In this document: positions 3,309-50,346 of the stretch, piece after piece
Numbering within the stretch: position 1 is the stretch's first letter
Layout of the letters: every line of letters begins with the position of its first letter
From: Acidobacteriota bacterium
GTDB taxonomy: Bacteria; Acidobacteriota; Vicinamibacteria; Vicinamibacterales; 2-12-FULL-66-21
NCBI GenBank assembly: GCA_046726015.1
Contig: JBKOZS010000085.1
Span: 9,953 to 73,952, forward strand
Length of the DNA stretch: 64,000 nucleotides
Reading direction: 5' to 3'
Notes under the pieces: model-generated
Databases searched by the model: none
What the model was told of the DNA's origin: nothing
Seen by the model: the letters and a program-made list of their open reading frames with translations, nothing else
Made by a program: the position numbers and the translations under genes

Positions 3309-3377
3309 GGCTCAGGACTCATGACTCATGGCCTAAGTCACGAACCCAGGGCCATGAGCCGCCATGAGCCATGAGCC
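3309..3377. repeat. heptad-periodic hairpin repeat (GGCTCAG/GACTCAT ... CATGAGC) between convergent genes
   Basis: ggctcag gactcat gactcat ggcc ... ggccatgagccgccatgagccatgagcc. The arms are mutually complementary (ctcatggcc / ggccatgag). Confidence 0.75.
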
Positions 3378-3385
3378 ATAAGTCG

Positions 3386-4123: not shown

Positions 4124-4660
4124 ATGGAGCAGACGCTCCTCCTTAACGCGACGTACGAGCCCCTCAAAGTCGTCCACTGGCAGAAGGCCATTACGCTTTG
4201 GTGCCAGGGGAAGGTTGAGGTTATCTCTGTCTACGACCGGGAAGTCCGGTCGGTCTCCTTCAGTTTCAAGCTGCCCTCGGTCATCCGCCTGCTGCGGTAT
4301 ATCAAGATCAAGCGGCAGATCGACTATGTCCCGTTCTCCCGTGCGAACATTTACGCGCGAGACGACCACTCCTGCCAGTACTGTGGGGAAGTCTTCCCAA
4401 CGGCGGAGTTGACCTTCGATCATGTGGTGCCGGTCGCCCAGGGCGGCCGCAAAGACTGGGAGAATATCGTTACCTGCTGCATCCCCTGCAACCGGAAGAA
4501 GGGTGGCCGGACGCCGGAGCAGGCCCACATGCATCTCATTCGGGTTCCCAAGCGCCCCGATAAAGCTCCCGCGATTCGCATTACGATCGGCCTTCGGAAC
4601 GCGCCGGAGACGTGGCGCGATTACTTCTACTGGAACGTCGAGCTGGACGACGAAAGCTGA
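4124..4660 (+). CDS. HNH endonuclease family protein
   Basis: 'CQYCG...LTFDHVVPVAQGGRKDWENIVTCCIPCNRKKG' (Cys pairs plus HNH core). Confidence 0.8.
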   Translation: MEQTLLLNATYEPLKVVHWQKAITLWCQGKVEVISVYDREVRSVSFSFKLPSVIRLLRYIKIKRQIDYVPFSRANIYARDDHSCQYCGEVFPTAELTFDHVVPVAQGGRKDWENIVTCCIPCNRKKGGRTPEQAHMHLIRVPKRPDKAPAIRITIGLRNAPETWRDYFYWNVELDDES

Positions 4661-4664
4661 CGAA

Positions 4665-5684
4665 GTGGGTCGGGTGACCTCCGTTCGCCCCCTTTGGGCG
4701 ATTGAGGGAGGACGCGTAACGCTCGAGGGGGCGGGCTTTCCCGTGCACCCCTCCCTGCCGCAGGTGCGTGTCGGACCGGAGGGTGCACGACTCGCTCACG
4801 CGTCGCCGACCGTCCTGACCATCATCGTCCCCACCGATCTTGAAGGCGGATCCACAGCCGTACGGATCGACGAGTTGCCGGGGGAAACCGCCTATATCGA
4901 GATCGGCGCTCCGTTCGTCACCGGCGTCCACCAGGTCGACAACCCCGCCTTCGATCGGCACGGCAATCTCTACGTCACGTTCAGCGGATCGCGAGGCCAC
5001 CAGGCGCCGGTCGCGATCTTTGTCGTGCGCCCCGACGGAACGCGCGAGCCGTTCGTGTCGGACATGCCGAACCCGACGTCGCTCGCCTTCGATCATGACG
5101 GGCATCTGTACGTGTCGAGCCGATTCGACGGCAGCGTCTATCGCGTCGAACCAGACGGCCGCGCGTCGCTCTTTGCCGGCGACCTTGGCGTCGCGTGTGG
5201 CCTCGCGTTTGGTCCAGATGGATTGCTCTACGTGGGCGATCGGAGCGGATCGATCCTGCGCGTCGAGGATCACGGGCGGGCCCGCCCGTTTGCGACGTTG
5301 CCGGCGAGTGTCGCTGCGTTCCATCTCGCATTCGGTCCCGACCAGCATCTTTACGTTGCCGCGCCAACGCTCGGTACGACCGATGCGATCTATCGCATCT
5401 CGCCGGACGGCACCGTCAGCGTCTGGAGCACCGGGTTTGGACGGCCGCAAGGCCTTGCGTTCGACGCGGCGGGTCACCTCTATGTCACCGATGCGCTTGC
5501 GGGGTGGAGTGGGATCTATCGCGTCCGCCTCGACGCCCCCGCGTCCCCCGAGCTCGTGCTCACAGGAGGGGCACTCATCGGCCTCGCTTTCGATCCGCAT
5601 GGCGGCCTGGCCGTCGCGACCAGCGACTCGGTGTATCGCCTTGGCGTCGGCCTTCGAGGGCTGCTGCCGCCGAACCAGCCATGA
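4665..5684 (+). CDS. IPT/TIG domain + six-bladed NHL/SMP-30-like beta-propeller repeat protein
   Basis: Six repeats of the form 'G(H/N/L)LYV...S(V/I)YR(V/I)'. N-terminal Ig-like segment. The listed ORF (4422) overlaps the HNH gene, so I chose the GTG at 4665 just after its stop. Confidence 0.6.
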   Translation: MGRVTSVRPLWAIEGGRVTLEGAGFPVHPSLPQVRVGPEGARLAHASPTVLTIIVPTDLEGGSTAVRIDELPGETAYIEIGAPFVTGVHQVDNPAFDRHGNLYVTFSGSRGHQAPVAIFVVRPDGTREPFVSDMPNPTSLAFDHDGHLYVSSRFDGSVYRVEPDGRASLFAGDLGVACGLAFGPDGLLYVGDRSGSILRVEDHGRARPFATLPASVAAFHLAFGPDQHLYVAAPTLGTTDAIYRISPDGTVSVWSTGFGRPQGLAFDAAGHLYVTDALAGWSGIYRVRLDAPASPELVLTGGALIGLAFDPHGGLAVATSDSVYRLGVGLRGLLPPNQP

Positions 5685-5712
5685 CTGCTTTACCCGATAA
5701 GATCGTGCAAGC

Positions 5713-7203
5713 ATGAATCAGTTGTTTCGACGTAAGCCCATCGCGGACCTGCTCGTCGAAGGCGACCATTCGCTCAAGCGCGTGCTCGGCGCCGGCGACC
5801 TGGTCATGCTGGCGATTGGGGCCGTGATCGGAGCGGGGATCTTTTCTTCCATCGGTACCGCCGCGGCGGGCGAGGTGACGCCAACGGGCGAAGTGGTGCG
5901 CTACGGCGCGGGCCCTGCGCTCGTTTTCTCGTTCATCCTGCTTGGCTTCGTCTGCGGGCTGGCAGCGCTCTGTTACGCGGAATTGGCGGCGATGATCCCG
6001 CAGGCGGGCAGTGCGTATGCGTATTCGTATGCGACGCTCGGCGAGCTGATCGCGTGGATCATCGGCTGGGATTTGATTCTCGAATACGCCGTCGGGAACA
6101 TTGCCGTCGCGATCGCATGGAGCGGATACTTCGTCTCGCTGCTCTCCGGCTTCGGAATCACGCTCCCCGGCTATCTCACGCACGGATATCGGACCGCGCT
6201 TCTCAGCTCGGACCCTGCGGTCCACGGTCTGCTGCAGACCGCGCCGCAGATCGTTGGCATTCCCTTTCTGATCAACATCCCGGCGGCGCTCATCGTCCTG
6301 GCGATCACCTGGCTGCTGTACATCGGCGTGCGCGAGAGCGCGCGCGCCAACAACATCATGGTGGTCGTCAAACTGATCGTGCTCGGGCTGTTCGTCGTGC
6401 TCGGCGCCATGCACATCGATCCGGCGAACTACCAGCCGTTCGCCCCGAACGGCTGGAAAGGCATTCACCAGGGCGCGGCAATCGTGTTCTTCGCCTACAT
6501 CGGCTTCGACGCGATCTCGACCGCGGCGGAAGAGACGAGGAACCCGCAGCGCAATATGCCAATCGGCATCCTGTTCGGGCTCGCGGTCTGCACGATCATC
6601 TACGTCGTCGTGGGCATCGTCGCGACGGGGCTCGTGCCGTACACGCAGCTCAAGGCCGCCGATCCGCTGGCCAGGGCGCTCGAAGTCGCGGGGCTGCAGA
6701 CGGCGAGCTGGATTGTCGCGTTCGGCGCCGTGGTTTCGCTGACCGCTGTCCTGCTCGTTTTCCAGTACGGCCAGCCTCGAATCTTCATGGCGATGGCACG
6801 CGACGGCCTGCTTCCACGGTGGGCTTCAAAGATCCATCCGAAATACCGGACACCGCACGTCACCACGATTGCGACCGGCCTGGTCGTCGCGATTGGCAGC
6901 CTGGTGATGGACGAGAATGAAATCTACGACCTGACGAACATAGGGACGCTTGCCGCATTCGCGATCGTCTGCATCGGCGTGCTCGTCCTGCGCTACGCCG
7001 ATCCGCAACGACCCCGGCCGTTCCGCGTGCCGTTCGTGTGGCCCGTCGCCGTGCTCGGCGCACTCGCTTGTATCTACACCATGCGCGGTCTTCCCACGCA
7101 TGCGTGGGAACGGTTTGGGATTTGGCTGGTGGCGGGCCTGCTGTTGTATTTCGGTTATGGGCTGAAGCACAGTCGGCTTCGGCGTGAGCCCGCAAGAAGC
7201 TGA
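5713..7203 (+). CDS. APC-superfamily amino-acid permease
   Basis: About 12 hydrophobic segments. 'GAGIFSS', 'AELAAMIPQAGSAYAY', 'FFAYIGFDAISTAAEE' are typical of amino-acid/polyamine permeases. Confidence 0.85.
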   Translation: MNQLFRRKPIADLLVEGDHSLKRVLGAGDLVMLAIGAVIGAGIFSSIGTAAAGEVTPTGEVVRYGAGPALVFSFILLGFVCGLAALCYAELAAMIPQAGSAYAYSYATLGELIAWIIGWDLILEYAVGNIAVAIAWSGYFVSLLSGFGITLPGYLTHGYRTALLSSDPAVHGLLQTAPQIVGIPFLINIPAALIVLAITWLLYIGVRESARANNIMVVVKLIVLGLFVVLGAMHIDPANYQPFAPNGWKGIHQGAAIVFFAYIGFDAISTAAEETRNPQRNMPIGILFGLAVCTIIYVVVGIVATGLVPYTQLKAADPLARALEVAGLQTASWIVAFGAVVSLTAVLLVFQYGQPRIFMAMARDGLLPRWASKIHPKYRTPHVTTIATGLVVAIGSLVMDENEIYDLTNIGTLAAFAIVCIGVLVLRYADPQRPRPFRVPFVWPVAVLGALACIYTMRGLPTHAWERFGIWLVAGLLLYFGYGLKHSRLRREPARS

Positions 7204-11284: not shown

Positions 11285-11355
11285 GGCTCAGGGCTCAGGG
11301 CGTTTTATGACCCTGGGCCTTTTCTCGTCTTACGCCCTGAGCCAGCCATGAGCCC
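11285..11355. repeat. heptad-periodic hairpin repeat (GGCTCAG family) between convergent lpxC and the radical-SAM gene
   Basis: ggctcag ggctcag ggcg ... cgccctgagccagccatgagcc. There is a 10-bp perfect stem, gctcagggcg/cgccctgagc. Confidence 0.75.
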
Positions 11356-11373
11356 TAAGTCCCAAGCCATTCA

Positions 11374-12748: not shown

Positions 12749-12819
12749 GGCTCAGGACTCAGGGCTCACGGCTCATGGCGTCTCAAGGCCAAGTAATCAG
12801 CCTTGCGTCATGAGTCATC
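12749..12819. repeat. heptad-periodic hairpin repeat (GGCTCAG family)
   Basis: ggctcag gactcag ggctcac ggctcat ggcg ... gccttgcgtcatgagtcatc. Confidence 0.7.
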
Positions 12820-18916: not shown

Positions 18917-20034
18917 GCGTTTTTGGAGGACGGAATGCCGAGGTCCGAGGTCCGAGGGTCGAGGTCCGAGGTCCGAGCTTCGAGGTCCGGCGTCGGCATG
19001 GCCTGAGTTGTCTGCCTCGCGTTCACCTGTTTCCACATCGCCTCGAGGAGCGCGGGCAATCCGTCTCCCGTGGCCGCTGAAACAGCGTAGAGCGGAATGC
19101 CCTTCGTCCGCAAATGCTCCGTGAGCCGCCCGAGACGAGACGGGTCGTCGAGCGCATCGATCTTGTTCGCAGCGACAATCAATGGCTTGTCCTGAAGCCG
19201 TTCGCCCGAGCCGTCTCGTCCCGGGAACAACGCGAGCTCGCGCGAGATGATCTCGAAGTCGTCCACCGGATCGCGTCCTGATGCGGACGAGACATCCACG
19301 AGGTGAACGAGAATCTTGGTGCGTTCGAGATGGCTGAGGAAGCGATGTCCGAGTCCGCTGCCCTGGTGGGCCCCTTCAATAAGCCCCGGAACGTCCGCGA
19401 CCACGAACGTGCGATCGTCGCTGAGACTGACGACCCCAAGATTCGGCGCGAGCGTGGTGAACGGATAGTCGGCGATCTTTGGTTTCGCTGCGCTGATGCG
19501 CGAGATCAGCGTGGACTTGCCGGCGTTGGGATACCCGACGAGGCCGACATCGGCCAGGAGCTTCAGGTGGAGTCGAAGATCCTTTTCTTCACCTGGGAGT
19601 CCTGGCTCTACGCGCCGCGGCGCGCGATTGGTGGACGTCGCGAACGTAGCGTTGCCGCGGCCGCCCAGACCGCCCTTCGCGATCAGCACGCGCTCGTCCG
19701 GATGCGTGAGATCCGCGACCTGGACGAAGTCGTCCCCCTGTCGCTCGAAGACTGCCGTGCCGACCGGAACTTCGAGCGTGGTGTCGGCGCCGCTTCGCCC
19801 CGTCCTGTTCGAGCCTTCGCCGTGTGCGCCGCGGCCGGCCGCGAACTCTTTCTGAAAGCGGTAATTGAGGAGCGTATTGAGATTGGGATTGGCAACGAGA
19901 TAGACGTTGCCACCGGGTCCGCCGTCGCCGCCGTTGGGACCGCCGCGCGGGACGAACTTTTCGCGGCGGAAACTCATCGCGCCGCGGCCCCCGTGGCCCG
20001 CTGCGACGTGGATTTCGACCTCGTCAACAAACAT
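18913..20034 (-). CDS. obg: GTPase Obg/CgtA
   Basis: 'FVDEVEIHVAAGHGGRGAMSFRREKF...GGDGG', G1 'GYPNAGKSTL', 'DVPGLIEGA', 'AANKID'. Confidence 0.95.
   Translation of the reverse strand: MFVDEVEIHVAAGHGGRGAMSFRREKFVPRGGPNGGDGGPGGNVYLVANPNLNTLLNYRFQKEFAAGRGAHGEGSNRTGRSGADTTLEVPVGTAVFERQGDDFVQVADLTHPDERVLIAKGGLGGRGNATFATSTNRAPRRVEPGLPGEEKDLRLHLKLLADVGLVGYPNAGKSTLISRISAAKPKIADYPFTTLAPNLGVVSLSDDRTFVVADVPGLIEGAHQGSGLGHRFLSHLERTKILVHLVDVSSASGRDPVDDFEIISRELALFPGRDGSGERLQDKPLIVAANKIDALDDPSRLGRLTEHLRTKGIPLYAVSAATGDGLPALLEAMWKQVNARQTTQAMPTPDLEARTSDLDPRTSDLGIPSSKNA
18938..18990. repeat. 7.5 x heptamer tandem array (CCGAGGT) inside the obg 3' coding end
   Basis: ccgaggt ccgaggt ccgaggg tcgaggt ccgaggt ccgagct tcgaggt ccgg. 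Translated in obg as '...DLEARTSDLDPRTSDLG...'. Confidence 0.85.
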
Positions 20035-20351: not shown

Positions 20352-20380
20352 GATACTGACCTGTCCGGCTGAACCCGGAC

Positions 20381-20725: not shown

Positions 20726-20746
20726 AACTCTAGATTAGCAGGAAAT

Positions 20747-20841
20747 GGCTTAGGGCTCAAGACTTAGGGCTCAGGGCCTTCTTAGGGCCGCTTCGGCTCA
20801 CGCCATGAACGCCTTGAGCCCTAAGCCCTGAGTGCTGAGCC
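20747..20841. repeat. heptad-periodic hairpin repeat (GGCTTAG/GGCTCAG family)
   Basis: ggcttag ggctcaa gacttag ggctcag ggcc ... gccttgagccctaagccctgagtgctgagcc. The outer 15 nt are perfectly complementary. Confidence 0.75.
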
Positions 20842-20843
20842 GG

Positions 20844-21710
20844 TTACTTCAGCAGCACCCGCGTGCCGCGGATTTTCTGGGCACTTAGCGTGCTGAGGAA
20901 GCTCGGCATCAGGCGGTCCATCAGCTCGAAGTAGGACGAGAGTGCGGGCGTGTTCTGTTGCGCGTTGTAGAGCACTTCCTCGTGGAACTTCTCTGAATAC
21001 AGCGTCGCACCTGTGCGGCCGTCGATGAAGATGAACCGCGGCTCGAGAATGAACCCCTTGCGCTCCTGGTACGTGCGCACAGGGATCACGCTGCGGCGTC
21101 CGAACGAGTCGTAGACCTCGCGGTTCTGCGTCACGAAGCCGGCAGACTGGTGCGGCGTAAACAGCACCGTGCCGGTGACGATGAGAGGACTCTGATATTC
21201 CTCGCCGAGCTTTCGCCAGTACGCGGCGTCCGCAAAAATCTTGTCGTATTTCTGCAGGTCCTTGTCGTTCTTGATCTTTGGTTCCTTGGGATCCGCGGCC
21301 GATGGCGCGGCCGGCGCCGACGGCGTCGAGGGCTGGGCGGACGCGCCGCTGGGCAACTGCCCAACCGGCTGGATGCCGTCCGTCTGCGCGTTCGGTGCCG
21401 GGTGTTCGCGGTTCTGATTCTGTTCGACGGCGATCTCGGCGAGCGGCAGCACGTCGGCTTCAATCACGCGCAGCGGCGATTTCGTCCGCAACTGGCTGCG
21501 CAGCAGACGGACGGTCTCGAGGTTCGCATCCACATCGTCGCTGCCGCCGCTGATGAAGCCGGCCACCAGCACGCGCTGGAAGCCCGTCACGTCCATCTTC
21601 GGCTGGATCGGGGTTTCAATCGGAATCTCGTAGAACCCCGAGCACCCCGCGATCGCGATGGCGCAGAGGACGACGAGACTAGCGAGCGCGCCGGCGCTTC
21701 GTGCGGTCAT
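20844..21710 (-). CDS. hypothetical lipoprotein
   Basis: Start trimmed to 'MTARSAGALASLVVLCAIAIAGCSG' (lipobox). Contains a Pro/Ala/Ser-rich linker. No family recognised. Confidence 0.55.
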   Translation of the reverse strand: MTARSAGALASLVVLCAIAIAGCSGFYEIPIETPIQPKMDVTGFQRVLVAGFISGGSDDVDANLETVRLLRSQLRTKSPLRVIEADVLPLAEIAVEQNQNREHPAPNAQTDGIQPVGQLPSGASAQPSTPSAPAAPSAADPKEPKIKNDKDLQKYDKIFADAAYWRKLGEEYQSPLIVTGTVLFTPHQSAGFVTQNREVYDSFGRRSVIPVRTYQERKGFILEPRFIFIDGRTGATLYSEKFHEEVLYNAQQNTPALSSYFELMDRLMPSFLSTLSAQKIRGTRVLLK

Positions 21711-23386: not shown

Positions 23387-25843
23387 ATGGCAAAGTCACT
23401 CGTGGTGGTGGAATCGCCAGCCAAGGCGAAGACCATCAACAAGTATCTCGGTAAGGATTACAAGGTCGTGGCCTCGATGGGGCACGTCCGCGATCTGCCC
23501 AAGAGCAAACTCGGCGTGGACGTCGACGAAGGCTTCGAGCCCTCGTACGAGGTGATCGCCAGCCGCAAGAAAGTGCTCAAGGAGCTGAAGGACGAAGCCA
23601 AGAAGGCGAACGAGATTTTTGTCGCGACCGACCCCGATCGCGAGGGCGAAGCGATCGGCTGGCACCTCGCTGAGGAACTGGGCAGCGGCAACCGTAAGAA
23701 GATCCGCCGCCTGATGTTCAACGAGATCACGAAGCGGGGCGTGCTGTCGGCGCTCGAAAAGCCGACGAGCATCGACAAGAAGCTGGTCGATGCACAGCAG
23801 GCGCGACGCGTGCTGGATCGCCTGGTCGGCTACAAGATCAGCCCGCTGCTGTGGGACAAGGTGCGTCGCGGCTTGAGCGCTGGACGCGTGCAGTCAGTTG
23901 CACTGAAGCTTGTGTGCGATCGCGAGCGCGAGATCGAGGCGTTCGTGCCCGAAGAATACTGGAACCTCACCGCACGCCTCGCAGGTCCGGTACCGCCGGA
24001 ATTCGACGCAAAGCTGCTCAAGAAGAACGGCGCGAACTTCAAGATCACCAACGAGGCGGAATCAAATGCCGCCGTCGCCGATCTCAAGCAGGCGCGCTGG
24101 GTCGTCGAATCGGTGACGACGAAGGAGCGGAAGAAAGGGGCCGTTCCGCCGTTCATTACGAGCAAGCTGCAGCAGGCATCGCGCTTCCCGGTGAAGAAGA
24201 CGATGATGATCGCGCAGCAACTCTACGAAGGCGTCGAGTTGCCGGGCGAAGGATCCGTTGGTCTCATCACCTACATGCGAACCGACTCGACGCGCGTCGC
24301 CGATCAGGCGCTCACCGAGGTGCGCGAGTTCATCGGCGAGACGTACGGGCCGGACTTCATACCGGAGAAACCGAACTACTACCGAGCGAAGGCGGACGCG
24401 CAGGATGCACACGAAGCGATTCGGCCGACGTCGGCGCAGTACCCGCCCGACGCCGTGCGCGCGCATCTCACGCACGATCAGTACTACCTTTATAAGTTGA
24501 TCTGGAACCGTTTCGTGGCGTCGCAGATGCCACCTGCGACGTTCGATGAAACGACCGTCGACATCGCGGCGACGCCTTCCACGGGCTCGGAGCGGGATTC
24601 GTATCTTTTCAGAGTGAAAGGATCTGTTCCGAAGTTCGCCGGATGGATGGCGGTCTACAACCAGGAAGCGGCCGCGCCCGCGACGGATGAACGGACCGGA
24701 CCAGGGCCGGACGCCACGTCGGCGGAAGATGATGAAGCCGCGGGAATCCTGCCGCCGCTGGCACAGGGAGACCAGCTCGCGTTGCGCGAGCTGAAGCCGG
24801 AGCAGAAATTCACGCAGCCGCCACCGCGCTACAGCGAAGCAACGCTCGTCAAGGCGCTGGAAGAGAACGGGATCGGCCGTCCGAGCACGTACGCCTCGAT
24901 CATCACCGTCATCCAGGCGCGCGAGTACGTGAACAAGCTGGAAGGCCGCTTCAAGCCGACGATGCTCGGCCGGATGCTGGTCGAGAAGCTGCTCAGCCCG
25001 GTGTTCGACGACATCCTCGACGTCAATTACACGCGCGAGCTCGAAGAGGATCTCGACAAGATCGAGCAGGGAGCGTCCGACTACGAGTCGACGCTTTCGA
25101 GCTTCTACAAGAAGTTCCAGAAGGATCTCAAGCGCGCCGCCAAGGAGATGCTCAATCTCAAGGAGGGATACGAGCCGGATCCTCCGATCGCGTGCGACAA
25201 GTGCGGCAAGCCGATGGTGATCAAGGCCGGCAAGTTCGGCCTCTTCCTCGCGTGCAGCGGTTATCCCGAGTGCGAGAACACGCGCGAGCTCGAGACGCCG
25301 GAGGCCGGCGCCGAGGGAGAGATCGAAGAGGCTTGCGAGAATTGCGGCAAGCCGATGGTCGTCAAGCGTGGCCGCTTCGGACAGTTCCTCGCCTGCACTG
25401 GCTATCCCGAGTGCAAGACGACGAGGAAGATCATTACCACCAAGCAGGGCATGACCGCGGCGAAGCCGGATCAGATCCTCGAGGAGAAGTGCCCGAAGTG
25501 CGAGTCGAACCTCGTGCTGAAGCAGGGGCGCTTCGGCGAATTCACCGCGTGCAGCAACTATCCGACTTGCAAGTACGTGAAGCAGAAGTCCACGGGCGTG
25601 CTCTGCCCGAAGGACGGCGGAGACATCGTCGAGCGGAAGTCGCGGCGCGGCAAAGTCTTCTTTGGATGCGCGAACTATCCGGACTGCGACTTCACGCTGT
25701 GGAACCGTCCGGTTCCGGAGAAGTGCCCGGATTGTGGGGCGCCGTTCCTGGTGGAAAAGATCACGAAGCGGCACGGACGTCAGCTCATTTGCAACAACGA
25801 AGAATGCTCGTACGTGCGGTCGGAGGAGCTGACTCCGGCATAA
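23387..25843 (+). CDS. topA: DNA topoisomerase I with four C-terminal Zn ribbons
   Basis: Toprim 'LVVVESPAKAKTINKYLG'. Four repeats of the type 'C.KCG.PMV.K.GRFG.F.AC.GYPEC'. Confidence 0.97.
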   Translation: MAKSLVVVESPAKAKTINKYLGKDYKVVASMGHVRDLPKSKLGVDVDEGFEPSYEVIASRKKVLKELKDEAKKANEIFVATDPDREGEAIGWHLAEELGSGNRKKIRRLMFNEITKRGVLSALEKPTSIDKKLVDAQQARRVLDRLVGYKISPLLWDKVRRGLSAGRVQSVALKLVCDREREIEAFVPEEYWNLTARLAGPVPPEFDAKLLKKNGANFKITNEAESNAAVADLKQARWVVESVTTKERKKGAVPPFITSKLQQASRFPVKKTMMIAQQLYEGVELPGEGSVGLITYMRTDSTRVADQALTEVREFIGETYGPDFIPEKPNYYRAKADAQDAHEAIRPTSAQYPPDAVRAHLTHDQYYLYKLIWNRFVASQMPPATFDETTVDIAATPSTGSERDSYLFRVKGSVPKFAGWMAVYNQEAAAPATDERTGPGPDATSAEDDEAAGILPPLAQGDQLALRELKPEQKFTQPPPRYSEATLVKALEENGIGRPSTYASIITVIQAREYVNKLEGRFKPTMLGRMLVEKLLSPVFDDILDVNYTRELEEDLDKIEQGASDYESTLSSFYKKFQKDLKRAAKEMLNLKEGYEPDPPIACDKCGKPMVIKAGKFGLFLACSGYPECENTRELETPEAGAEGEIEEACENCGKPMVVKRGRFGQFLACTGYPECKTTRKIITTKQGMTAAKPDQILEEKCPKCESNLVLKQGRFGEFTACSNYPTCKYVKQKSTGVLCPKDGGDIVERKSRRGKVFFGCANYPDCDFTLWNRPVPEKCPDCGAPFLVEKITKRHGRQLICNNEECSYVRSEELTPA

Positions 25844-25850
25844 TAGAGTC

Positions 25851-27311
25851 GTGGCTCGTGTTCATATCGTCGGAGGCGGACTTGCCGGCAGCGAAGCTGC
25901 CTGGCAGGTCGCGTCGCGTGGCGTGCACGTCACGCTCTACGAGATGCGGCCTGTTCGCCCGACGGCCGTCCACAAGACGGATGGTCTTGCGGAGCTCGTC
26001 TGCAGTAATTCCTTCCGCGGCGACAAGCTCGATAACGCCGTCGGACTGCTGAAGGAAGAGATGCGGCGGCTCGGGTCGCTCGTCATGCGGGCGGCTGACG
26101 AGACACGCGTGCCTGCGGGCGCCGCGCTTGCCGTCGATCGCGAGCGTTTTTCATCGCACGTCACCGCGGCGATCGCGTCGCATCCATTGATCTCAATCCG
26201 CCGTGAAGAGATCACGCGAATCCCAACCAACGTCGACGGTCCCGTCATTCTCGCAACAGGTCCGCTGACGTCGGACGCCCTGTCTTCCGACATCGCGTCA
26301 CTTGTCGGCAGCGATCATCTCTACTTCTACGACGCGATCAGCCCCATCGTCCTCGCGGAATCAATCGATCGGTCGAAAGTCTTCCGCGCGTCCCGCTGGG
26401 GGCGGAGCCTCCGAAACGGGGACACCCACACTTCGCCCGGATCGAACAGCCAACATACAAAAAAAGGGGACAGCCCCCTTTTTTCGCAAAAAAAGGGGAC
26501 AGCCAACCCCGCCTGCGGCGTCGATGACGGCGAGGGAGACTATCTCAACTGCCCGTTCACGAAGGAGGAGTACGAGCGCTTCTACGACGCGCTCGTGGCG
26601 GCGGAGAAAGCGGCGCTCCACGAGTTCGATCAGGCGAAGTTCTTCGAGGGCTGCCTGCCGATCGAGGTGATGGCGTCGCGCGGCGTCGACACGCTCCGGT
26701 TTGGCCCCATGAAGCCCGTCGGCCTTCCCGATCCCCGAACCGGACGCGAGGCGTACGCCATCGTCCAGCTCCGCCAGGACAACATCGCGGGCGATCACTT
26801 CAGCCTCGTCGGCTTTCAAACGCAAATGAAATGGGGAGAGCAGGCGCGCGTGCTCCGGCTGATTCCCGGTCTCGAACAGGCGGAGTTCGTGCGCTTTGGC
26901 ATGATCCACCGCAACACGTACGTGAATTCCCCAACGGTACTGCGTGAAACCTGGCAGACCCGTGTCCGCGAGGATCTCTTCTTCGCCGGCCAGATGTCCG
27001 GCGTCGAGGGCTACGTGGAGTCCGCCGCGTCTGGTCTCATCGCCGGCCGGAATGCGGCGGCGCTGGTGCTCGGCGACCAGCCGTCAGCCCCACCGCGGAC
27101 GACCGCGATCGGGGCACTGGCCTATTACGCCTCACACGCGGATCCGAAACACTATGTGCCATCGAATATCGCGTTCGGCCTGCTGCCGCCGCTCGACAAG
27201 GCGCCGCGGAAGAAGCAGGACCGGAAGATCGCGGTCTCCGAGCGTGCGCTGAAGGATCTGGATCTGTGGTTAGAGAGCACCTCAAAGACTTTCTCGAACA
27301 CCTCCGTCTGA
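25851..27311 (+). CDS. trmFO: methylenetetrahydrofolate--tRNA-(uracil-5-)-methyltransferase TrmFO, with a ~42-aa internal insertion
   Basis: 'VHIVGGGLAGSEAAWQ', 'LVCSNSFR', 'DYLNCPFTKEEYERF', 'FFAGQMSGVEGYVESAASG'. Confidence 0.9.
   Translation: MARVHIVGGGLAGSEAAWQVASRGVHVTLYEMRPVRPTAVHKTDGLAELVCSNSFRGDKLDNAVGLLKEEMRRLGSLVMRAADETRVPAGAALAVDRERFSSHVTAAIASHPLISIRREEITRIPTNVDGPVILATGPLTSDALSSDIASLVGSDHLYFYDAISPIVLAESIDRSKVFRASRWGRSLRNGDTHTSPGSNSQHTKKGDSPLFSQKKGTANPACGVDDGEGDYLNCPFTKEEYERFYDALVAAEKAALHEFDQAKFFEGCLPIEVMASRGVDTLRFGPMKPVGLPDPRTGREAYAIVQLRQDNIAGDHFSLVGFQTQMKWGEQARVLRLIPGLEQAEFVRFGMIHRNTYVNSPTVLRETWQTRVREDLFFAGQMSGVEGYVESAASGLIAGRNAAALVLGDQPSAPPRTTAIGALAYYASHADPKHYVPSNIAFGLLPPLDKAPRKKQDRKIAVSERALKDLDLWLESTSKTFSNTSV
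26418..26506 (+). repeat. GGGGACAGCC-motif repeat element (core 26459-26506) inside the trmFO ORF, with an A7-GGGG-loop-CCCC-T6 hairpin
   Basis: The core aaaaaaaggggacagcccccttttttcgcaaaaaaaggggacagcc recurs, reverse-complemented, at 48243-48290 with 1 mismatch (43 of 44 nt). Confidence 0.8.
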
Positions 27312-28201
27312 ACGAGAACGCGTCGGCGCACACGGTGCGCGCCTACGACAGCGATTTGTCGCAGTACTTGGCGTTTCTTGCCTCGCATCTCGATCGTCGT
27401 GTCTCCGACCTGACGCCGGCGGACCTCGACCATCTGAACGCGCGCGCCTTCCTGGGCGATCTGAATCGCCGGGGCAATTCCAAGGCGTCGGCGGCGCGCA
27501 AGCTGTCCGCGATTCGCGCATTCGGCCGCTATCTCCGCCGTGAAGGCCTCCTCGAGGGCGACCCCGCCGCACTCGTCGGCACTCCGAAGCGCGAGCAGCG
27601 CATCCCCGCGCACCTTGCCGTCGACGAAATGTCGAAACTCCTCGAGATGCCGGATACCAGCGATCCACTCGGCCGCCGCGACAAGGCGATCCTCGAGCTG
27701 TTCTACGCATCGGGTCTGCGCTTGAGCGAGCTGGTTAGTCTGGATCTGGATGACGTCAACCTCTCTGGACGCGTGGTCCGCGTGCTCGGCAAGGGGCGCA
27801 AAGAGCGGATCGTTCCCTTCAATCGAACGGCGGCTGAGGCATTACGCGCGTGGCTGGCCGATCGCGAGACGTTACGAGCACCGGCCGCTCGAAAGTCTCC
27901 CGTTCTGCGGACTAACCGCGGCCGTGAACCGCTGTTCCTGAACTACCAGGGAAGCCGGCTGTCGACGCGCGGTGTCGATAAGCTCGTGCGACGCTACGTC
28001 GCCGCCTGCAGCACCCGTTTCGGCATCAGTCCGCATGCCTTACGCCACTCCTTCGCCACGCATCTGCTCGAGGCAGGAGCTGACCTGCGCGCCATCCAGG
28101 AGCTCCTCGGCCACGCACGCCTGAGCACGACGCAACGCTACACGCACGTCAACGCCGCCCAGCTGCTCGATACTTACAGAAAAGCCCACCCGAAGGCCTG
28201 A
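27266..28201 (+). CDS. xerC: tyrosine site-specific recombinase XerC/XerD family
   Basis: 'AHTVRAYDSDL', 'LRHSFATHLLEAGADLRAIQELLGHARLSTTQRYTHV'. Position after topA-trmFO matches the codV/xerC context. Confidence 0.8.
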   Translation: MVREHLKDFLEHLRLNENASAHTVRAYDSDLSQYLAFLASHLDRRVSDLTPADLDHLNARAFLGDLNRRGNSKASAARKLSAIRAFGRYLRREGLLEGDPAALVGTPKREQRIPAHLAVDEMSKLLEMPDTSDPLGRRDKAILELFYASGLRLSELVSLDLDDVNLSGRVVRVLGKGRKERIVPFNRTAAEALRAWLADRETLRAPAARKSPVLRTNRGREPLFLNYQGSRLSTRGVDKLVRRYVAACSTRFGISPHALRHSFATHLLEAGADLRAIQELLGHARLSTTQRYTHVNAAQLLDTYRKAHPKA

Positions 28202-28278: not shown

Positions 28279-29091
28279 ATGCGCAGGCTGCTGCGGGTTG
28301 CGTTAGCGTTCGAGTGTCTCCTGCTGACCGGCCGCGTCGCGACCGCGCAGGACGCACCACTTCTTCCGTCCACGCCGATTCAGATCTCGATCAGTCGTCC
28401 GCTTCAGCTCTCCGAAGACCAACTGCAGGAGCTCGAGCAGTGGATCGACGACATGGCGAAGTGGCAGCGCGACGAAAAGCGCTGGCCCAATTCACCAGCG
28501 CACGATGCGTATGGTCGCATCATTGTGCGGCGTCCGCAGCCAGCGCCGCCCGAGTGGCTCGACCGCGTGTGCACGGGGCGCGATGAAGCATCGCTCTCGC
28601 TGCTGCCGCCGAGATTAGCGGAGGCGTGCCGCCTCCTCGCGAGCCGATCGATGGATCCGAAAGCGCAGGCGATTCAGCAGCAGACGCAGACCGCCCGTGC
28701 CAGCAAAGAGAAGCTGACGAAGACGTCGTTTCTCTCACGCGTGCACCTCGACGGACTCTGGACGACCACGTCATCGGACGTGCGGTTCTACGGACTCGTC
28801 GGTTCGCACATCAGCCTTGTCGATGTCGGCCGCGTGCAGTTCTTCGGCCCTCCTGGCGTCCTGCTGCTCTCGGTCCCCGATGGCAGGGGTTCCCGGCAGA
28901 TCCGCGTGGGCTATACGTGGGGAATGAGCGTGCGGCTGGCAGACGTACGGTTGTTCGCGCCGCGGAAGAACGCGACGTTGTTCCTGACGGTGACCAAGTG
29001 CTGGACGGTGGGGAGCAACATCGATCGCCTGGGTTCCGGCGGATTCGATATCGCCGGTCTCTCGATCGCGCCGCGAAAGAACCGGCAGTAA
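28279..29091 (+). CDS. hypothetical secreted protein
   Basis: Signal peptide 'MRRLLRVALAFECLLLTGRVATAQD'. No family recognised. Confidence 0.5.
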   Translation: MRRLLRVALAFECLLLTGRVATAQDAPLLPSTPIQISISRPLQLSEDQLQELEQWIDDMAKWQRDEKRWPNSPAHDAYGRIIVRRPQPAPPEWLDRVCTGRDEASLSLLPPRLAEACRLLASRSMDPKAQAIQQQTQTARASKEKLTKTSFLSRVHLDGLWTTTSSDVRFYGLVGSHISLVDVGRVQFFGPPGVLLLSVPDGRGSRQIRVGYTWGMSVRLADVRLFAPRKNATLFLTVTKCWTVGSNIDRLGSGGFDIAGLSIAPRKNRQ

Positions 29092-29092
29092 C

Positions 29093-29190
29093 GGCTCAGG
29101 GCTTATCACTCATGGCTTATGGCGGCTCAGGGCGCTAAGCCGGTTCGACACGTGAGCCGGCTTAAGCCCTGAGTCTTTGAGCCTTGAGTC
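29093..29190. repeat. heptad-periodic hairpin repeat (GGCTCAG/GGCTTAT family) between convergent genes
   Basis: ggctcag ggcttat cactcat ggcttat ggc. Stem ctcagggcgctaagccgg / ccggcttaagccctgag at 29126-29173. Confidence 0.75.
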
Positions 29191-40732: not shown

Positions 40733-42296
40733 GACCCGTGGGACCCATTGATACTTTACCACCAACCTCTGCCGAGGGTAGATCGAGCCTGAATTCCGCC
40801 CCACCCCCAACGGAATTTGACGCGGTAATCGTCCCCCCGTGCTCCTGCACGATCCCGTAAGTGATTGCCAGGCCAAGGCCCGTGCCTTTGCCCACTTCTT
40901 TTGTGGTGAAGAAGGGGTCGAAGATCCGCGGCAATACATCGGAAGGAATTCCAGGACCGCTGTCGCGCACGATCAGTGAGACCTGCTCGCGCGAAGCGTC
41001 GCTGGATGAGGCCACTGCGATCCGCCGTGGTCCGTTGCCGTCGACGACTGCATGCTCGGCGTTGATCACGATGTTCAGCAGCGCCTGCTGCAGCAGGAGC
41101 GGATCGCCAAGCACGAATGGAAGGTCCGCCCCCTGGTCTCGCGTCACTTCGATGTTGGCCCGTTGCAGGCTTGCCCGGCGGCTCGCGAGTACCCGTGTCA
41201 GCACGCGATCGACCTGCAGCCGCCGTCGCGCCATGCGGCGCGATCCAGTGAAGACGAGGAGATTGCGCACGATCTTCGCGGCGCGATCCGCGTCCTGGTA
41301 AATCTGCTTCAGCTCCTTGCGCACCGGCCGCGCCGCTTCGGTGAGTTCGATCAACAGTTCGAGATGACCGAGCACGCCTTGCAGCGGATTGTTCATCTCG
41401 TGCGCGATGCCGGCGACAAACTGCCCGAGTGAGGCGAGTTTTTCCGATTGGGCGAGTCGCCCGCGCAGCGCCGCGCGTTCCGCTTCGAGGCGTGTCTGTC
41501 GCGTGATGTCGCGCGCCACGAGCACGCGCCCGACTTCGTTGCCTTCCTGGTTGATGAGCGGCGTGGCGGTGAGAAGAAATGTCCCACCGAGGAGCGCATC
41601 TTCGATCGGGTTGGCGCCGGTTGGCGCGAGGGCCGGGTCGGCGGACGCAATCCACGCCGCGGTTTCCGGCGCCACGAAATCCGCGACCGCGCGCTGCATC
41701 AGGTCCGCGCGCGGCACGCCGACGCGCGCGGAGAACGCCTCGTTGGTCTGCACGATCCGCAGATCGCGATCCATGACGGCCACGAGGTCGACCAGCGAAT
41801 TGAACGTGTCTTCGAGGAGCCGGCGCTGCCGAAGCACTTCGTCGAGCAACTGAATGTTCTCGATGCCGACGGATAGCTGGCGCCCGAGTTCGTGCGCGAA
41901 CTCGATCGCCTGCTCGCAGCTGATGCGAGCACCGTCGAGCCCGTCGATGACCACCGTCCCCAGGGCGCGACGCCAGCCGCGGAGCGGCGTAACCAGCTCG
42001 GTACCGAAGTACTGCGGGCGTTCGACCCGTAAGCCGCGGGCAGCCGGATGCGCCGGATCGTCGGTTGGCAGGCGGATGCCAAGTCCGAGTGCCGGATCTG
42101 ACGAGGCCGTGAGCTCCAGTTCCCGGGCCCTGCGGTCGTGCACCCAAATGTCGGTGCGCCGCGCCCCGATCAGATCACAAATTTGGTGTGCGACCGTTTC
42201 CAGCGCCGTCGCGAGGTTGAGGGTCGCGGACACACCGCGCGAGAACAGCAGCGGGATATCCCGCAGCGCCTCGTGCAGGGAAGGGTCTAAGCTCAT
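40722..42296 (-). CDS. cytoplasmic sensor histidine kinase (GAF-PAS-HisKA-HATPase_c)
   Basis: H-box '[14 protein letters not shown]', 'NIVINAEHA', 'DSGPGI', '[13 protein letters not shown]'. No transmembrane segment seen. Confidence 0.85.
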
Positions 42297-42379: not shown

Positions 42380-42438
42380 GGGGTCCAGTGGCAAGATCGG
42401 GGTCCAGTGGCAAGATCGGGGTCCAGTGGCAAGATCGG
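42380..42438. repeat. perfect 3 x 19-bp tandem repeat (GGGGTCCAGTGGCAAGATC) plus a 2-nt partial unit
   Basis: Units at 42380-42398, 42399-42417 and 42418-42436. Lies between the divergent kinase (start 42296) and the ECF sigma gene (start 42481). Confidence 0.9.
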
Positions 42439-46951: not shown

Positions 46952-47014
46952 CGAAGTCCGAACTTCGGACCTCTAAAGCCGGACCTCGGGCCTCGACCCT
47001 CGGACCTCGGCACC
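46952..47014. repeat. 9 x heptamer tandem array (CGGACCT family), reverse-complement orientation of the obg array
   Basis: cgaagtc cgaactt cggacct ctaaagc cggacct cgggcct cgaccct cggacct cggcacc. Contains a small hairpin, gtccgaa-c-ttcggac. Confidence 0.8.
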
Positions 47015-47018
47015 TGTC

Positions 47019-48077
47019 TTACTGCAGCTTCTTCAGTTCCCCCTGATACGTGACCGTTTCATCCGGCGTGATCAGCACGTCGAACTCCGCGGTCTCGTAG
47101 CCGTCAGCCTTGATCTCGACCTTGTGCCGGCCGCCGTTCAACGCAAGCTTCTGGAACGCACCGTCGAACTGATCGACCTCGCCGACGAAATATCCGTCGA
47201 CATACACCTTCGCGTGGCGCGGTTTGACCTTCAATCGCACGTGACCCGAATCAGCACTCCCGTACTGGACGCCGCCGGTGTAACCGCCGCCGCCCCCATA
47301 TCCATAGCCGCCATACCCGTAGCTCGAATACCACGGGTCGTACCACGGATCGTAGAACATCGGCCAGCCCAGTCCGAGCCCGTAGCCGAAGCCGAGCCCG
47401 AACCCCGGATAGTACCCGGCCCGATACGGATAACCGTAGTAGGGGTAGCCGTAATACGGGTAATAGAAGGGATCGTAGTAGTAGCGATTGTGACCGTAGC
47501 CACCCTGACCGCCGATCGGTGTCGTGCGCTCGGTTGCCGTGCCGCTGACCGGACGGCCACCACGCGGTCGGCTCCACGACGGAACCTCCCCGTTCGTGCG
47601 CGAAGGGGCCGCGTTCGATCCGCCGGAGCTGCTGCTCGTCGTGGCATCGCCGCCCGACTTCGACGTGCTGCCCGACGAAGATCCGCTGCCACGAGGGACA
47701 GCGCGATCGCCGCCGCCGCTGCCGCCACCGCGATGCTGCGAGCCTCCGCTGTTGCTGCTCCCTCCACCGCCGCCGCGACGCTGGGGCTCCGAGTACCGCG
47801 GCGCGCTTCGGTCTGCGGCGCCAAATGACGGAGCTGCCGCGCTCGAAGACGGAGCCGAACTCGTGGACTCGACCGACGAGCCGCCGGACGCGGTCGAGCC
47901 GCTACCGCCCGAGTTGGAGCCGCCGCCCGACGGCGCGCTGCGCTCGACCGCGCGGTCGGCAACGGGTGTTGAGCCCCTGTCTTGGGTGGGCCGTTCGCGC
48001 TGGCCTGCGAGCACCGGTGCGCTCATCAGCGCAAGCCCCGCGGCGGCCATACCGACCCTGTTGAGAAGACCTTTCAT
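47019..48077 (-). CDS. secreted protein with long Gly/Ser and Tyr/Gly/Pro low-complexity regions and a C-terminal PEGA domain
   Basis: Start trimmed to 'MKGLLNRVGMAAAGLALMSAPVLAG'. PEGA-like 'VRLKVKPRHAKVYVDGYFVG...HKVEIKADGYETAEFDV'. Confidence 0.7.
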   Translation of the reverse strand: MKGLLNRVGMAAAGLALMSAPVLAGQRERPTQDRGSTPVADRAVERSAPSGGGSNSGGSGSTASGGSSVESTSSAPSSSAAAPSFGAADRSAPRYSEPQRRGGGGGSSNSGGSQHRGGGSGGGDRAVPRGSGSSSGSTSKSGGDATTSSSSGGSNAAPSRTNGEVPSWSRPRGGRPVSGTATERTTPIGGQGGYGHNRYYYDPFYYPYYGYPYYGYPYRAGYYPGFGLGFGYGLGLGWPMFYDPWYDPWYSSYGYGGYGYGGGGGYTGGVQYGSADSGHVRLKVKPRHAKVYVDGYFVGEVDQFDGAFQKLALNGGRHKVEIKADGYETAEFDVLITPDETVTYQGELKKLQ

Positions 48078-48242
48078 GATGCGCTCCTTGCGCAAGGACC
48101 TACTTGTCCGTCCCTTCATTGTGCAACAGATCTGCCACGGTCGAGGCCCTCGAAAAGGGGCGTTTTTGCGTCCCGGCCCCGCTTGGATGTACTCCCGAGA
48201 GAGCATCCGTCCCGTTCTGCGGCCAGCTGCGCCGCGTCACCC

Positions 48243-48312
48243 CGGCTGTCCCCTTTATTTGCGAAAAAAGGGGGCTGTCCCCTTTTTCTGTGTGTAGGCG
48301 GCTTGCCCCCGG
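48243..48312 (-). repeat. second copy (reverse orientation) of the GGGGACAGCC-motif element, intergenic
   Basis: The reverse complement of 48243-48290 is aaaaaggggacagcccccttttttcgcaaataaaggggacagcc. Hairpin at 48264-48288. Confidence 0.8.
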
Positions 48313-48426
48313 CTTGGCCACCGTAGTGTGGCAACGCGAAGGTGAAGCCCGCGCTCGCGTGTACGCGTCGAAGGCGGGACCATTTGATAGACTGCGGAGA
48401 AGGTCGCTGGTTCGGCCCTCCAGATC

Positions 48427-48954
48427 ATGCTTCACGCGACAACAGTGCTGGCCGTCCGTCACGGGGACCACGCCGTGATGGCCAGCGACGGCCAGGTCAC
48501 CTTCGGCGACACCGTCGTCAAGCAAAGCGCGCGAAAAATTCGCCGGCTATACAACGACAGGGTTCTGGCCGGGTTCGCCGGATCGGCCGCGGATTCATTT
48601 GCCCTGTTCTCGCGATTCGAGGCAAAGCTCGAACAGTACCGCGGCAACCTCGAGCGGTCGGCCGTCGAGCTCGCGAAGGATTGGCGAACCGATCGCATGC
48701 TCCGCCGTCTCGAGGCGATGCTGATCGTGATGGACACCCACGCAACGTATCTCCTGTCAGGCAACGGCGATCTCATCGAGCCCGACGACGGGATCGTGGC
48801 GATTGGGTCGGGTGGCGGATACGCCATGGCTGCCGCCAAAGCGCTGGCACGGCACACGGGACTCGACGCGCGCGCGATCGCGGAACAGGCCATGCACATC
48901 GCGGCGCAGATCTGCATCTATACGAACGACACGCTCACGATCGAAGTGCTCTAA
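48427..48954 (+). CDS. hslV: ATP-dependent protease subunit HslV (CodW-like N-terminus)
   Basis: '[25 protein letters not shown]', '[10 protein letters not shown]', 'GSGGGYA'. Confidence 0.93.
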
Positions 48955-48963
48955 AGGCCGCTC

Positions 48964-50346
<1,383 letters not shown>

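Follow-up and report, generated by a model that had tools for sequence, protein, structure and literature searches.

Why does a conserved tRNA-modification gene carry, in frame, a hairpin-forming piece of DNA that also occurs between genes? The question is raised by trmFO in a 64,000-nt stretch of the Acidobacteriota contig JBKOZS010000085.1 (the whole stretch is called the window below). An original prediction, made from the letters of the window, suggested that a small sequence resembling a repetitive extragenic palindrome (REP) or a miniature transposable element with inverted repeats (MITE) had landed in this gene without breaking its frame. The repeat in the trmFO insert is here named F1. 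Sequence comparison identifies it as a putative short, multi-copy, hairpin-forming repeat of the REP or bacterial interspersed mosaic element (BIME) type. Our explanation, to which we give a probability of about 0.8, is that REP-like elements colonize, and replace one another in, permissive protein loops, where they would be translated as disordered linkers.

Results

The extra segment of TrmFO and the F1 repeat

The trmFO gene (25851-27311, forward strand) was taken from the open reading frame (ORF) list as an intact ORF of 486 aa, and in phmmer both halves of its product match Thermus TrmFO (3g5q; E = 2e-140). The alignment is split at query residues 186|229 (Thermus S183|A184), leaving residues 187-228 unmatched; these 42 aa (nt 26409-26534, forward strand, 126 nt) agree with the number of about 42 given in the prediction. 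The extra peptide, LRNGDTHTSPGSNSQHTKKGDSPLFSQKKGTANPACGVDDGE, has a high content of G, S, D, T, K, N and P, and if the insert is translated its peptides would include GDSPLFSQK and NGDTHTSPGSNSQHTK. The VCSNS and EGCLP motifs, which presumably hold the two catalytic cysteines of TrmFO, are conserved in the window protein. When TrmFO diversity was clustered at 50% identity, the loop at the insert position usually had 4-8 aa, with a full span of 4 to 70 aa, a few unrelated lineages being expanded as well. In the closest outgroup (65% identity) the loop reads SRYGKGGDDYVNCP.

Within the segment lies a 26-nt hairpin at 26459-26484 on the forward strand, made up of A7 (26459-26465), GGGG (26466-26469), ACAGC (26470-26474), CCCC (26475-26478) and T6 (26479-26484), letter for letter as predicted. 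RNA folding of 26454-26486 gave -12.5 kcal/mol (z = -4.4), and 0/200 shuffled sequences were as stable. The stem has only 4-5 G-C pairs, and its T6 pairs with the upstream A-tract. The hairpin belongs to a module of ~29 nt, A6-GGGGACAGCCCCC-T6-CGCAAA(A/T). Matches elsewhere delimit F1 as an element of ~59 nt at 26446-26504 on the same strand, which begins with a left end (ACAGCCAACATACA) and continues with a single complete hairpin module, a CGC-A7 spacer and, last, half a module (GGGGACAGCC); an exact motif search located the second (half) module, AAAGGGGACAGCC, at 26492-26504 (forward strand), where F1 ends. Exact copies of AAAGGGGACAGCC occur four times in the window, at 26463 and 26492 on the forward strand and at 48244 and 48273 on the reverse strand, against an expected 0.04. 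A motif said to be repeated two or three times in the insert was found in just that manner: GGGGACAGCC is present twice, and a third, degenerate copy (GGGGACACCC) lies at ~26418. The truncated half-module end recurs at loci L023, L028, L059 and L069 and in an intergenic copy in the window, and the left end of F1 in trmFO equals, when reverse-complemented, the end of the L074 copy. The trmFO copy contains no stop codon in any of the six frames (6/6).

Copies of F1 elsewhere

The second F1 copy in the window is intergenic (48244-48313, reverse strand), between a Gly/Ser/Tyr-rich protein gene (47019-48206, reverse strand) and hslV (48427, forward strand). A 44-nt core had been reported to recur, reverse-complemented and with one mismatch, near 48243-48290; it was recovered as 26461-26504 matching the reverse complement of 48244-48287 with one mismatch. 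The two copies are 86% identical over 70 nt (26435-26504 versus 48244-48313) and 93% identical over 56 nt (48299-48244). A scan of the window allowing up to 3 mismatches revealed no F1 copy beyond these two loci. The second copy lies between divergent genes and not 3' of a gene. The annotated upstream extension of ORF 47019-48206 is probably spurious, in which case the intergenic region holding this copy measures ~350 nt.

Comparative data were drawn throughout from metagenome assemblies. The dispersal of F1 was followed with the exact 20-mer AAAGGGGACAGCCCCCTTTT, scanned in one genome per species. It was found as single copies in many unrelated phyla, as is expected of a terminator-like palindrome, and at single loci in several Vicinamibacterales metagenome-assembled genomes (MAGs). 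In the Acidobacteriota MAG JBKPRU01 it occurs at at least 13 loci (about 30 modules). The TrmFO of this MAG (P0011, locus L099) is 90% identical to that of the window and has F1 at the same site. The JBKPRU01 copies consist of 1-4 modules ~29 nt apart, A6-GGGGACAGCCCCC-T6-YGCRAAW, in both orientations, and many end in a half module (GGGGACAGCC). At most loci the modules are direct and 29 nt apart; inverted modules are held by L012, L051, L056 and L059. Some copies have GCCACC-A6GGGG...CCCCT6-GGTGGC ends, and many lie directly after a stop codon, as judged by eye.

A further JBKPRU01 copy lies inside the gene for L-aspartate oxidase, NadB (L023, 5859-5903, within ORF 4610-6208), and is 45/45 identical to window positions 26454-26498. 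The two genes use different frames, NadB reading EKRGQPPFFAKKGDS and TrmFO KKGDSPLFSQKKGTA. This NadB has FAD_binding_2 at 16-383 and Succ_DH_flav_C at 437-528 and matches 1chu (E = 1e-112); the F1 copy sits in the linker between the two domains. The core is not confined to its two window sites, given the at least 13 further loci in JBKPRU01 and the nadB copy, and the repeat nature proposed for the trmFO insert is borne out by the intergenic window copy, the JBKPRU01 loci and a nadB copy read in another frame. By these matches F1 is a dispersed element, either recently spread or strongly conserved, that is able to survive inside genes.

Low-GC loci of Aminicenantes MAGs (L049 4620-4709, L077 416-484 and L087 1988-2126) carry multiple F1-like hairpins, A-tract-GGGGACAGCCCCC-T-tract, in both orientations. 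A wider occurrence in Acidobacteriota, be it of the motif or of a convergent terminator, is therefore possible.

The TrmFO site in relatives

The segment that corresponds to window positions 26406-26510 (forward strand), between the flanks SRWGR and ACGVDDGEG-DYLNCP, is hypervariable across the clade, in 120 proteins and 85 DNA loci; alignment to these and to Thermus 3g5q, as the prediction had proposed, served to delimit the insertion. In the 120 orthologous proteins (77-91% identity) the flanks SRWGRSL and ACGVDDGEGDYLNCP are constant, while the 17-69 residues between them fall into several unrelated motif families. No repeat-free orthologue was seen to carry the window's segment as ordinary protein sequence. 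At the DNA level the segment measures 48-255 nt (16-85 aa), and in 85/85 loci it is a multiple of 3 and free of stops, both properties having been judged from the DNA independently of gene calls. This range, together with the 4-70 aa found across TrmFO diversity, implies that the loop tolerates insertion. The prediction has to be corrected in that repeats occupy this hypervariable site in every one of the 85 relatives examined.

The inserts fold more stably than equal-length control pieces of the same genes (median z of -2.4 versus -0.13), and 45% of them, as against 1.4% of controls, show a palindromic excess with z < -3 (p = 1.5e-12). Copies outside trmFO were detected for 27/85 inserts in 0.76 Mb of pooled DNA, 8 of them in the insert's own locus. 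Matches of 96-100% identity over 24-33 nt tie other inserts to extragenic REPs, same-locus copies included. Neither exact 12-mers nor blastn had yielded extra copies of these other families within ~20 kb around four long loci; they were found once the 85 loci were pooled. A 69-nt unit is duplicated in tandem and in frame, two and three times (L135 5390-5575; L147 3808-4062), and includes the normally conserved flank (…SCGVDDG). The site consequently also expands by local duplication, and not by repeat insertion alone. Several folds suggested long-range pairing between the flanks (Ser-Leu-Arg versus Gly-Glu-Gly codons); this was rejected, as Leu codons are found in free combination with Glu/Gln codons and good pairing is reached in none of the registers.

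At least five unrelated repeat families occupy the TrmFO site, as assigned from blastn matches and from reading of the sequences. Besides F1 (core A6-GGGGACAGCCCCC-T6, translated KGDSPLF or KGTAPF), these are F2 (core CGTGGCTTCCGCCTTCAGGCGGAAG, translated PPEGGSH or ASAFRRK), F3 (core CGTAGTGTCCGGCTTCAGCCGGAC, translated VRLKPDTT), F4 (core CGTAGGGCGGGGCTTCAGCCCCGC and relatives, translated GRGFSPA) and F5 (core GGGGTCAGACCCC). F2-F4 have the 5' GTAG-type tag (CGTAG or CGTGG) and the inverted-doublet arrangement of canonical REPs/REPINs. Simple-sequence repeats are also present among the inserts (L150, L176 and L179). Between nearest neighbours with 95-99% identity in the flanking protein, the inserts are often unrelated; L170 and L179, for example, have flanks that are 99.2% identical, one with an F3 doublet and the other with a simple repeat. 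The insert boundaries are fixed: a Ser codon forms the left one and TGCGG the right one. Turnover at the TrmFO site is very fast. The window itself has a single F3-type REP-like palindrome (GTCCGGCTGAACCCGGAC, 20363-20380), its only trace of those families by which the trmFO site is occupied elsewhere in the clade.

A composite insert

F1 did not enter a pristine gene. A decayed remnant of an older hairpin element (AACGGGGACACCCACACTTCGCCCGGATCGA) was recognized at about 26415-26445 (forward strand) by its match to a hairpin arm of L100: window positions 26419-26441 (GGGGACACCCACACTTCGCCCGG) are 19/23 identical to the left arm of the hairpin that L100 carries at the same site. In L100, whose TrmFO is 88% identical, this older hairpin is still intact (-23.6 kcal/mol). 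F1 (26446-26504) stands in place of its right arm, and a GACAG core is common to the old and the new element. L099 and L109 have F1 without the older remnant. The extra segment ends in nine codons (ACGVDDGEG) that are conserved in the clade and belong to no repeat. The older remnant and this clade-specific loop argue against a single landing. The prediction of a small in-frame REP/MITE-like element in trmFO is supported, but this element makes up only about 59/126 nt of the segment. These alignments show that F1 entered an older palindromic insert, part of which it replaced, in an insertion-tolerant TrmFO loop.

The search for a target-site duplication, which the prediction had called for, turned up no clear one. 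A 9-nt direct repeat, ACAGCCAAC, is present at 26446-26454 and 26499-26507 (53 nt start to start), flanking the F1 hairpin; it overlaps F1's own core, however, and comparable repeats are not evident at other F1 copies. It could be a target duplication, a microhomology used in template switching, or chance.

Other intragenic sites

The interdomain linker of NadB is likewise hypervariable in 120 orthologues of the clade and holds the same families as the trmFO site. In translation F1 is seen in at least 10 proteins, F2 is read as FRLKAEATG...VASAFRRK, and sequences of the ADLTP and QGFSPA types occur as well. In relatives, REPs use another intragenic site, which extends from ~100 nt before the trmFO stop up to the stop and overlaps the xerC start; REPs lie at this trmFO 3' end in L142 (11347-11371), L146 (3587-3611), L130 (2294-2344), L140 (8483-8512), L129 (3064-3170), L117 (5897-5923) and L118 (11380-11406). 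The topA-trmFO spacer also has REPs, in L137, L154, L174 and L117. The NadB linker and the trmFO 3' sites mean that the behaviour is not specific to trmFO, and a trmFO-specific function of the insert is disfavoured. Colonization of insertion-tolerant linkers of housekeeping proteins is thus general for the REP-like elements of this lineage, and the TrmFO loop and the NadB linker act, across a Vicinamibacterales-like clade, as sinks for each genome's resident REP-like families.

Neighbouring genes and other repeats of the window

In the window trmFO is preceded by topA (23387-25843, forward strand) and followed by xerC (27266-28201, forward strand), and the order dprA-topA-trmFO-xerC is kept in relatives. 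The second F1 copy is just upstream of hslV-hslU (48427-50346), and ~20 kb separate xerC from hslV; the two window F1 copies flank this interval, one per side. In Bacillus subtilis, topA-trmFO-xerC-hslV-hslU are contiguous. The product of ORF 47019-48206, rich in Gly/Ser/Tyr and of very low complexity, has a probable signal peptide. Just downstream of this ORF is an array (46958-47012) that forms the inverted partner, 76-89% complementary and 28 kb away, of a (CCGAGGT)x7 array at 18938-18989.

Two further repeats were noted. A dispersed family built of heptamers (GGCTCAG, GACTCAT and GGCTCAT), direct and inverted, occurs at 3309-3384, 11334-11368, 12749-12790, 20740-20848 and 29093-29136, the last of these copies directly following an ORF whose end is at 29091. 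In addition, 3.1 copies of a 19-nt unit (GGGGTCCAGTGGCAAGATC) form a perfect tandem repeat at 42380-42438, between ORFs starting at 42296 (reverse strand) and 42481 (forward strand).

Discussion

How the insert may have arisen and persisted

We propose that each genome's REP-like families land in permissive loops and quickly replace one another, every insert keeping the reading frame. The insert would be transcribed and translated as a hydrophilic, probably disordered surface loop, and TrmFO would remain functional with it. Translation is suggested by the absence of stops from F1 in all frames together with a total insert length that is a multiple of 3. Since F1 is open in all frames and only the length has to be a multiple of 3, survival in frame requires no special mechanism. 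Candidate routes of movement are a REP-associated tyrosine transposase (RAYT)-type single-strand transposase, insertion of one REP into another, and template switching or gene conversion at the GACAG core; the fixed boundaries, the position of F1 inside an earlier hairpin and the shared GACAG core hint at REP-into-REP insertion or template switching. Any partial termination of transcription at the hairpin would be a side effect and not the reason for its presence.

Several points weigh against this explanation. No copy outside trmFO was detected for 58/85 inserts, which may be decayed elements or ordinary low-complexity sequence. Only two F1 loci can be counted in the 64 kb available from the window's own genome, the high copy number being that of a related MAG. 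F1 lacks the GTAG/CGTC tag of canonical REPs, and no clear target-site duplication was found for it, the ACAGCCAAC direct repeat overlapping its core. A tblastn search of the window and the clade loci, which are a small fraction of any genome, with a RayT probe revealed no RAYT transposase. That the insert is translated is deduced from the conservation of its frame. Finally, an AF2 model of the window TrmFO (40 close homologues) had a mean pLDDT of 47, too poor to place the loop, and does not show surface exposure directly.

Alternatives

One alternative refines the colonization of permissive loops and does not oppose it. In targeted homing, the site would be a sequence- or structure-specific landing pad, at which resident REPs preferentially enter at or next to an existing hairpin by means of their transposase or by hairpin-induced template switching, so that the reuse of one site would reflect targeting and not tolerance alone. 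That 85/85 loci are occupied between fixed boundaries (Ser codon, TGCGG), that inserts are unrelated even where flanks are 99% identical, that F1 landed inside an older hairpin with which it shares the GACAG core, and that the NadB linker is reused in the same way are all as homing would have it. Insertion sequences, moreover, are known to target REPs, and in the pneumococcus some repeats lie inserted in others (PMC3733652, PMC10969869). Yet the junctions have neither a conserved target motif nor a clear target-site duplication, the flanks have no conserved complementarity, and no transposase was identified in the window or the clade loci; expansion of the loop in unrelated TrmFO lineages without REPs fits simple tolerance. 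We regard homing as possible, though at distinctly less than even odds. A little more tentative is the broader idea that a few exact positions in housekeeping genes are long-lived docking sites, where the current REP families of each genome preferentially insert and displace one another by REP-into-REP homing or hairpin-driven template switching. If so, the docking positions seen so far would be the TrmFO loop, the TrmFO C-terminal region and the NadB linker; a whole order of soil Acidobacteria would keep REP cassettes within its proteins, the sites would give a nucleotide-resolution record of REP mobility, and might persist for a useful flexible linker or for a DNA or RNA hairpin.

Selection might instead have kept the hairpin as an attenuator, terminator or processing site inside the gene, to tune the expression of trmFO or of xerC downstream. 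The hairpin is followed by T6, its fold is stable, almost all inserts at the site fold strongly, and related copies often lie directly after stop codons (by eye). The terminator-like label given to it is weak: a terminator scan made no sense-strand call in trmFO and only two weak antisense calls, and the other window copy is between divergent genes. Most other families at the site have no T-tract, and the shortest alleles (48 nt) have no repeat element at all. The same behaviour in the NadB linker and at the TrmFO C-terminus is not tied to this operon. Nor was an Rfam family found: the sole match, SraG, scored 28 bits against a gathering score of 50 and was rejected as a chance, terminator-driven match. 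A selected RNA structure is accordingly improbable.

Lower still is the chance that the insert is an ordinary fast-evolving, low-complexity loop whose likeness to intergenic repeats is coincidental or convergent. The 58/85 inserts without a detected external copy and the simple-sequence repeats of L150, L176 and L179 would suit it. This reading is already largely refuted by F1 matches of 45/45 and of 93% over 56 nt in unrelated contexts, by the 96-100% identity of other inserts to extragenic REPs over 24-33 nt, some in the same locus, and by the extreme excess of palindromes. Equally little probability attaches to F1 being a motif like the DNA-uptake sequences, of a kind that also forms terminator-like inverted pairs and occurs in genes. 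The motif is short, conserved, present in both orientations and sometimes paired, and dprA lies upstream of topA in relatives. Known uptake sequences occur at about 1 per kb, however, orders of magnitude above the density of about 4 cores in 64 kb, and the conserved unit of F1 is a composite of 45-59 nt and not a 10-12-mer. Least probable of all is that the insert is taken out at the RNA or protein level (as an intron-like element or an intein, or by translational bypass), a question raised with the prediction for which nothing speaks directly. Removal would lift the need to keep the frame and avoid stops, yet both are kept in 85/85 loci with many independent, unrelated inserts, which favours translation; 42 aa are far too few for an intein, and Rfam gave no ribozyme or intron match.

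Significance of the site

The TrmFO site offers a natural series of at least 85 alleles and at least 5 families, with replacement between relatives whose flanks are 99% identical, from which insertion, replacement and decay can be reconstructed at base resolution in an uncultured clade of soil Acidobacteria. How REPs move and choose their targets is still unclear in general, and the site bears on both. Abundant housekeeping enzymes would tolerate 16-85 repeat-encoded residues in one loop, which bears on protein evolution and on the choice of insertion-tolerant sites for engineering. For annotation and metagenome binning, such loops are to be treated as repeat-derived, and neither as lineage-specific domains nor as phylogenetic signal.

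Comparison with known systems

MITEs (70-300 bp, with terminal inverted repeats and a target-site duplication) were considered and rejected as a class for F1, which has only about 45-59 nt and whose ACAGCCAAC repeat overlaps the core and is absent from other copies. F1 resembles the BIMEs of enterobacteria in forming mosaic arrays of REP units, alternating or tandem, at fixed genomic positions. BIME content differs between related species. BIMEs are extragenic, whereas the F1 array in trmFO is inside an ORF and held to its reading frame.

SPRITE and other repeats of Streptococcus pneumoniae are terminator-like and dispersed, cluster, and insert into other repeats (PMC10969869). F1 shares with SPRITE a core resembling a rho-independent terminator (A-tract, GC stem and T-tract), as well as clustering and insertion into repeats; it differs in having a copy in frame within coding sequence and in being terminator-like by its letters with no sense-strand call in the scan.

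REPs with a GTAG/CGTC tag are short imperfect palindromes, multi-copy, mostly extragenic and often dimeric (PMC3733652). In Opitutus terrae, Thauera and others a fraction of these REPs/REPINs lies within genes and codes for 20-80 aa (Di Nocera et al., 2013; PMC3733652). Neither trmFO/gid nor aspartate oxidase is among the REP-bearing genes listed there (PMC3733652). F1 agrees with these REPs in being a short (20-40 bp) imperfect palindrome with many dispersed, mainly extragenic copies, as counted in JBKPRU01. In place of the tag, the F1 copies in trmFO, nadB and most JBKPRU01 loci have ACATACA or GCCACC beside the A-tract, and the stem is formed by A/T tracts with GGGG/CCCC in mainly direct, tandem 29-nt modules.

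The Rickettsia palindromic elements (RPEs) are in-frame palindromic repeats in genes (Ogata et al., 2000; 2002; Claverie and Ogata, 2003, as summarized in PMC3733652 and PMC10969869). In these summaries RPEs, like F1, are in-frame palindromic repeats of functional housekeeping genes that add peptide segments to several unrelated proteins; F1 is such a repeat in conserved, apparently functional genes, namely trmFO and the nadB of a relative. The hosts differ, an intracellular alphaproteobacterium as against free-living, high-GC soil Acidobacteriota, and so does the unit size, a 29-nt module and a ~59-nt element as against about 100-150 bp. We do not assign F1 to RPE-1 to RPE-10, from which it is set apart by host clade (Acidobacteriota/Vicinamibacterales-like) and unit length. 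By analogy, F1 would work like RPEs and intragenic REPs, and we claim membership of no named family. We did not find it described for RPEs that several unrelated families use the same exact site in rapid succession, and we found no description of such reuse across a clade. In-frame intragenic REPs are already known; what is new is this reuse and its speed, and a type of event known mainly from Rickettsia and a handful of genomes is thereby extended to soil Acidobacteria.

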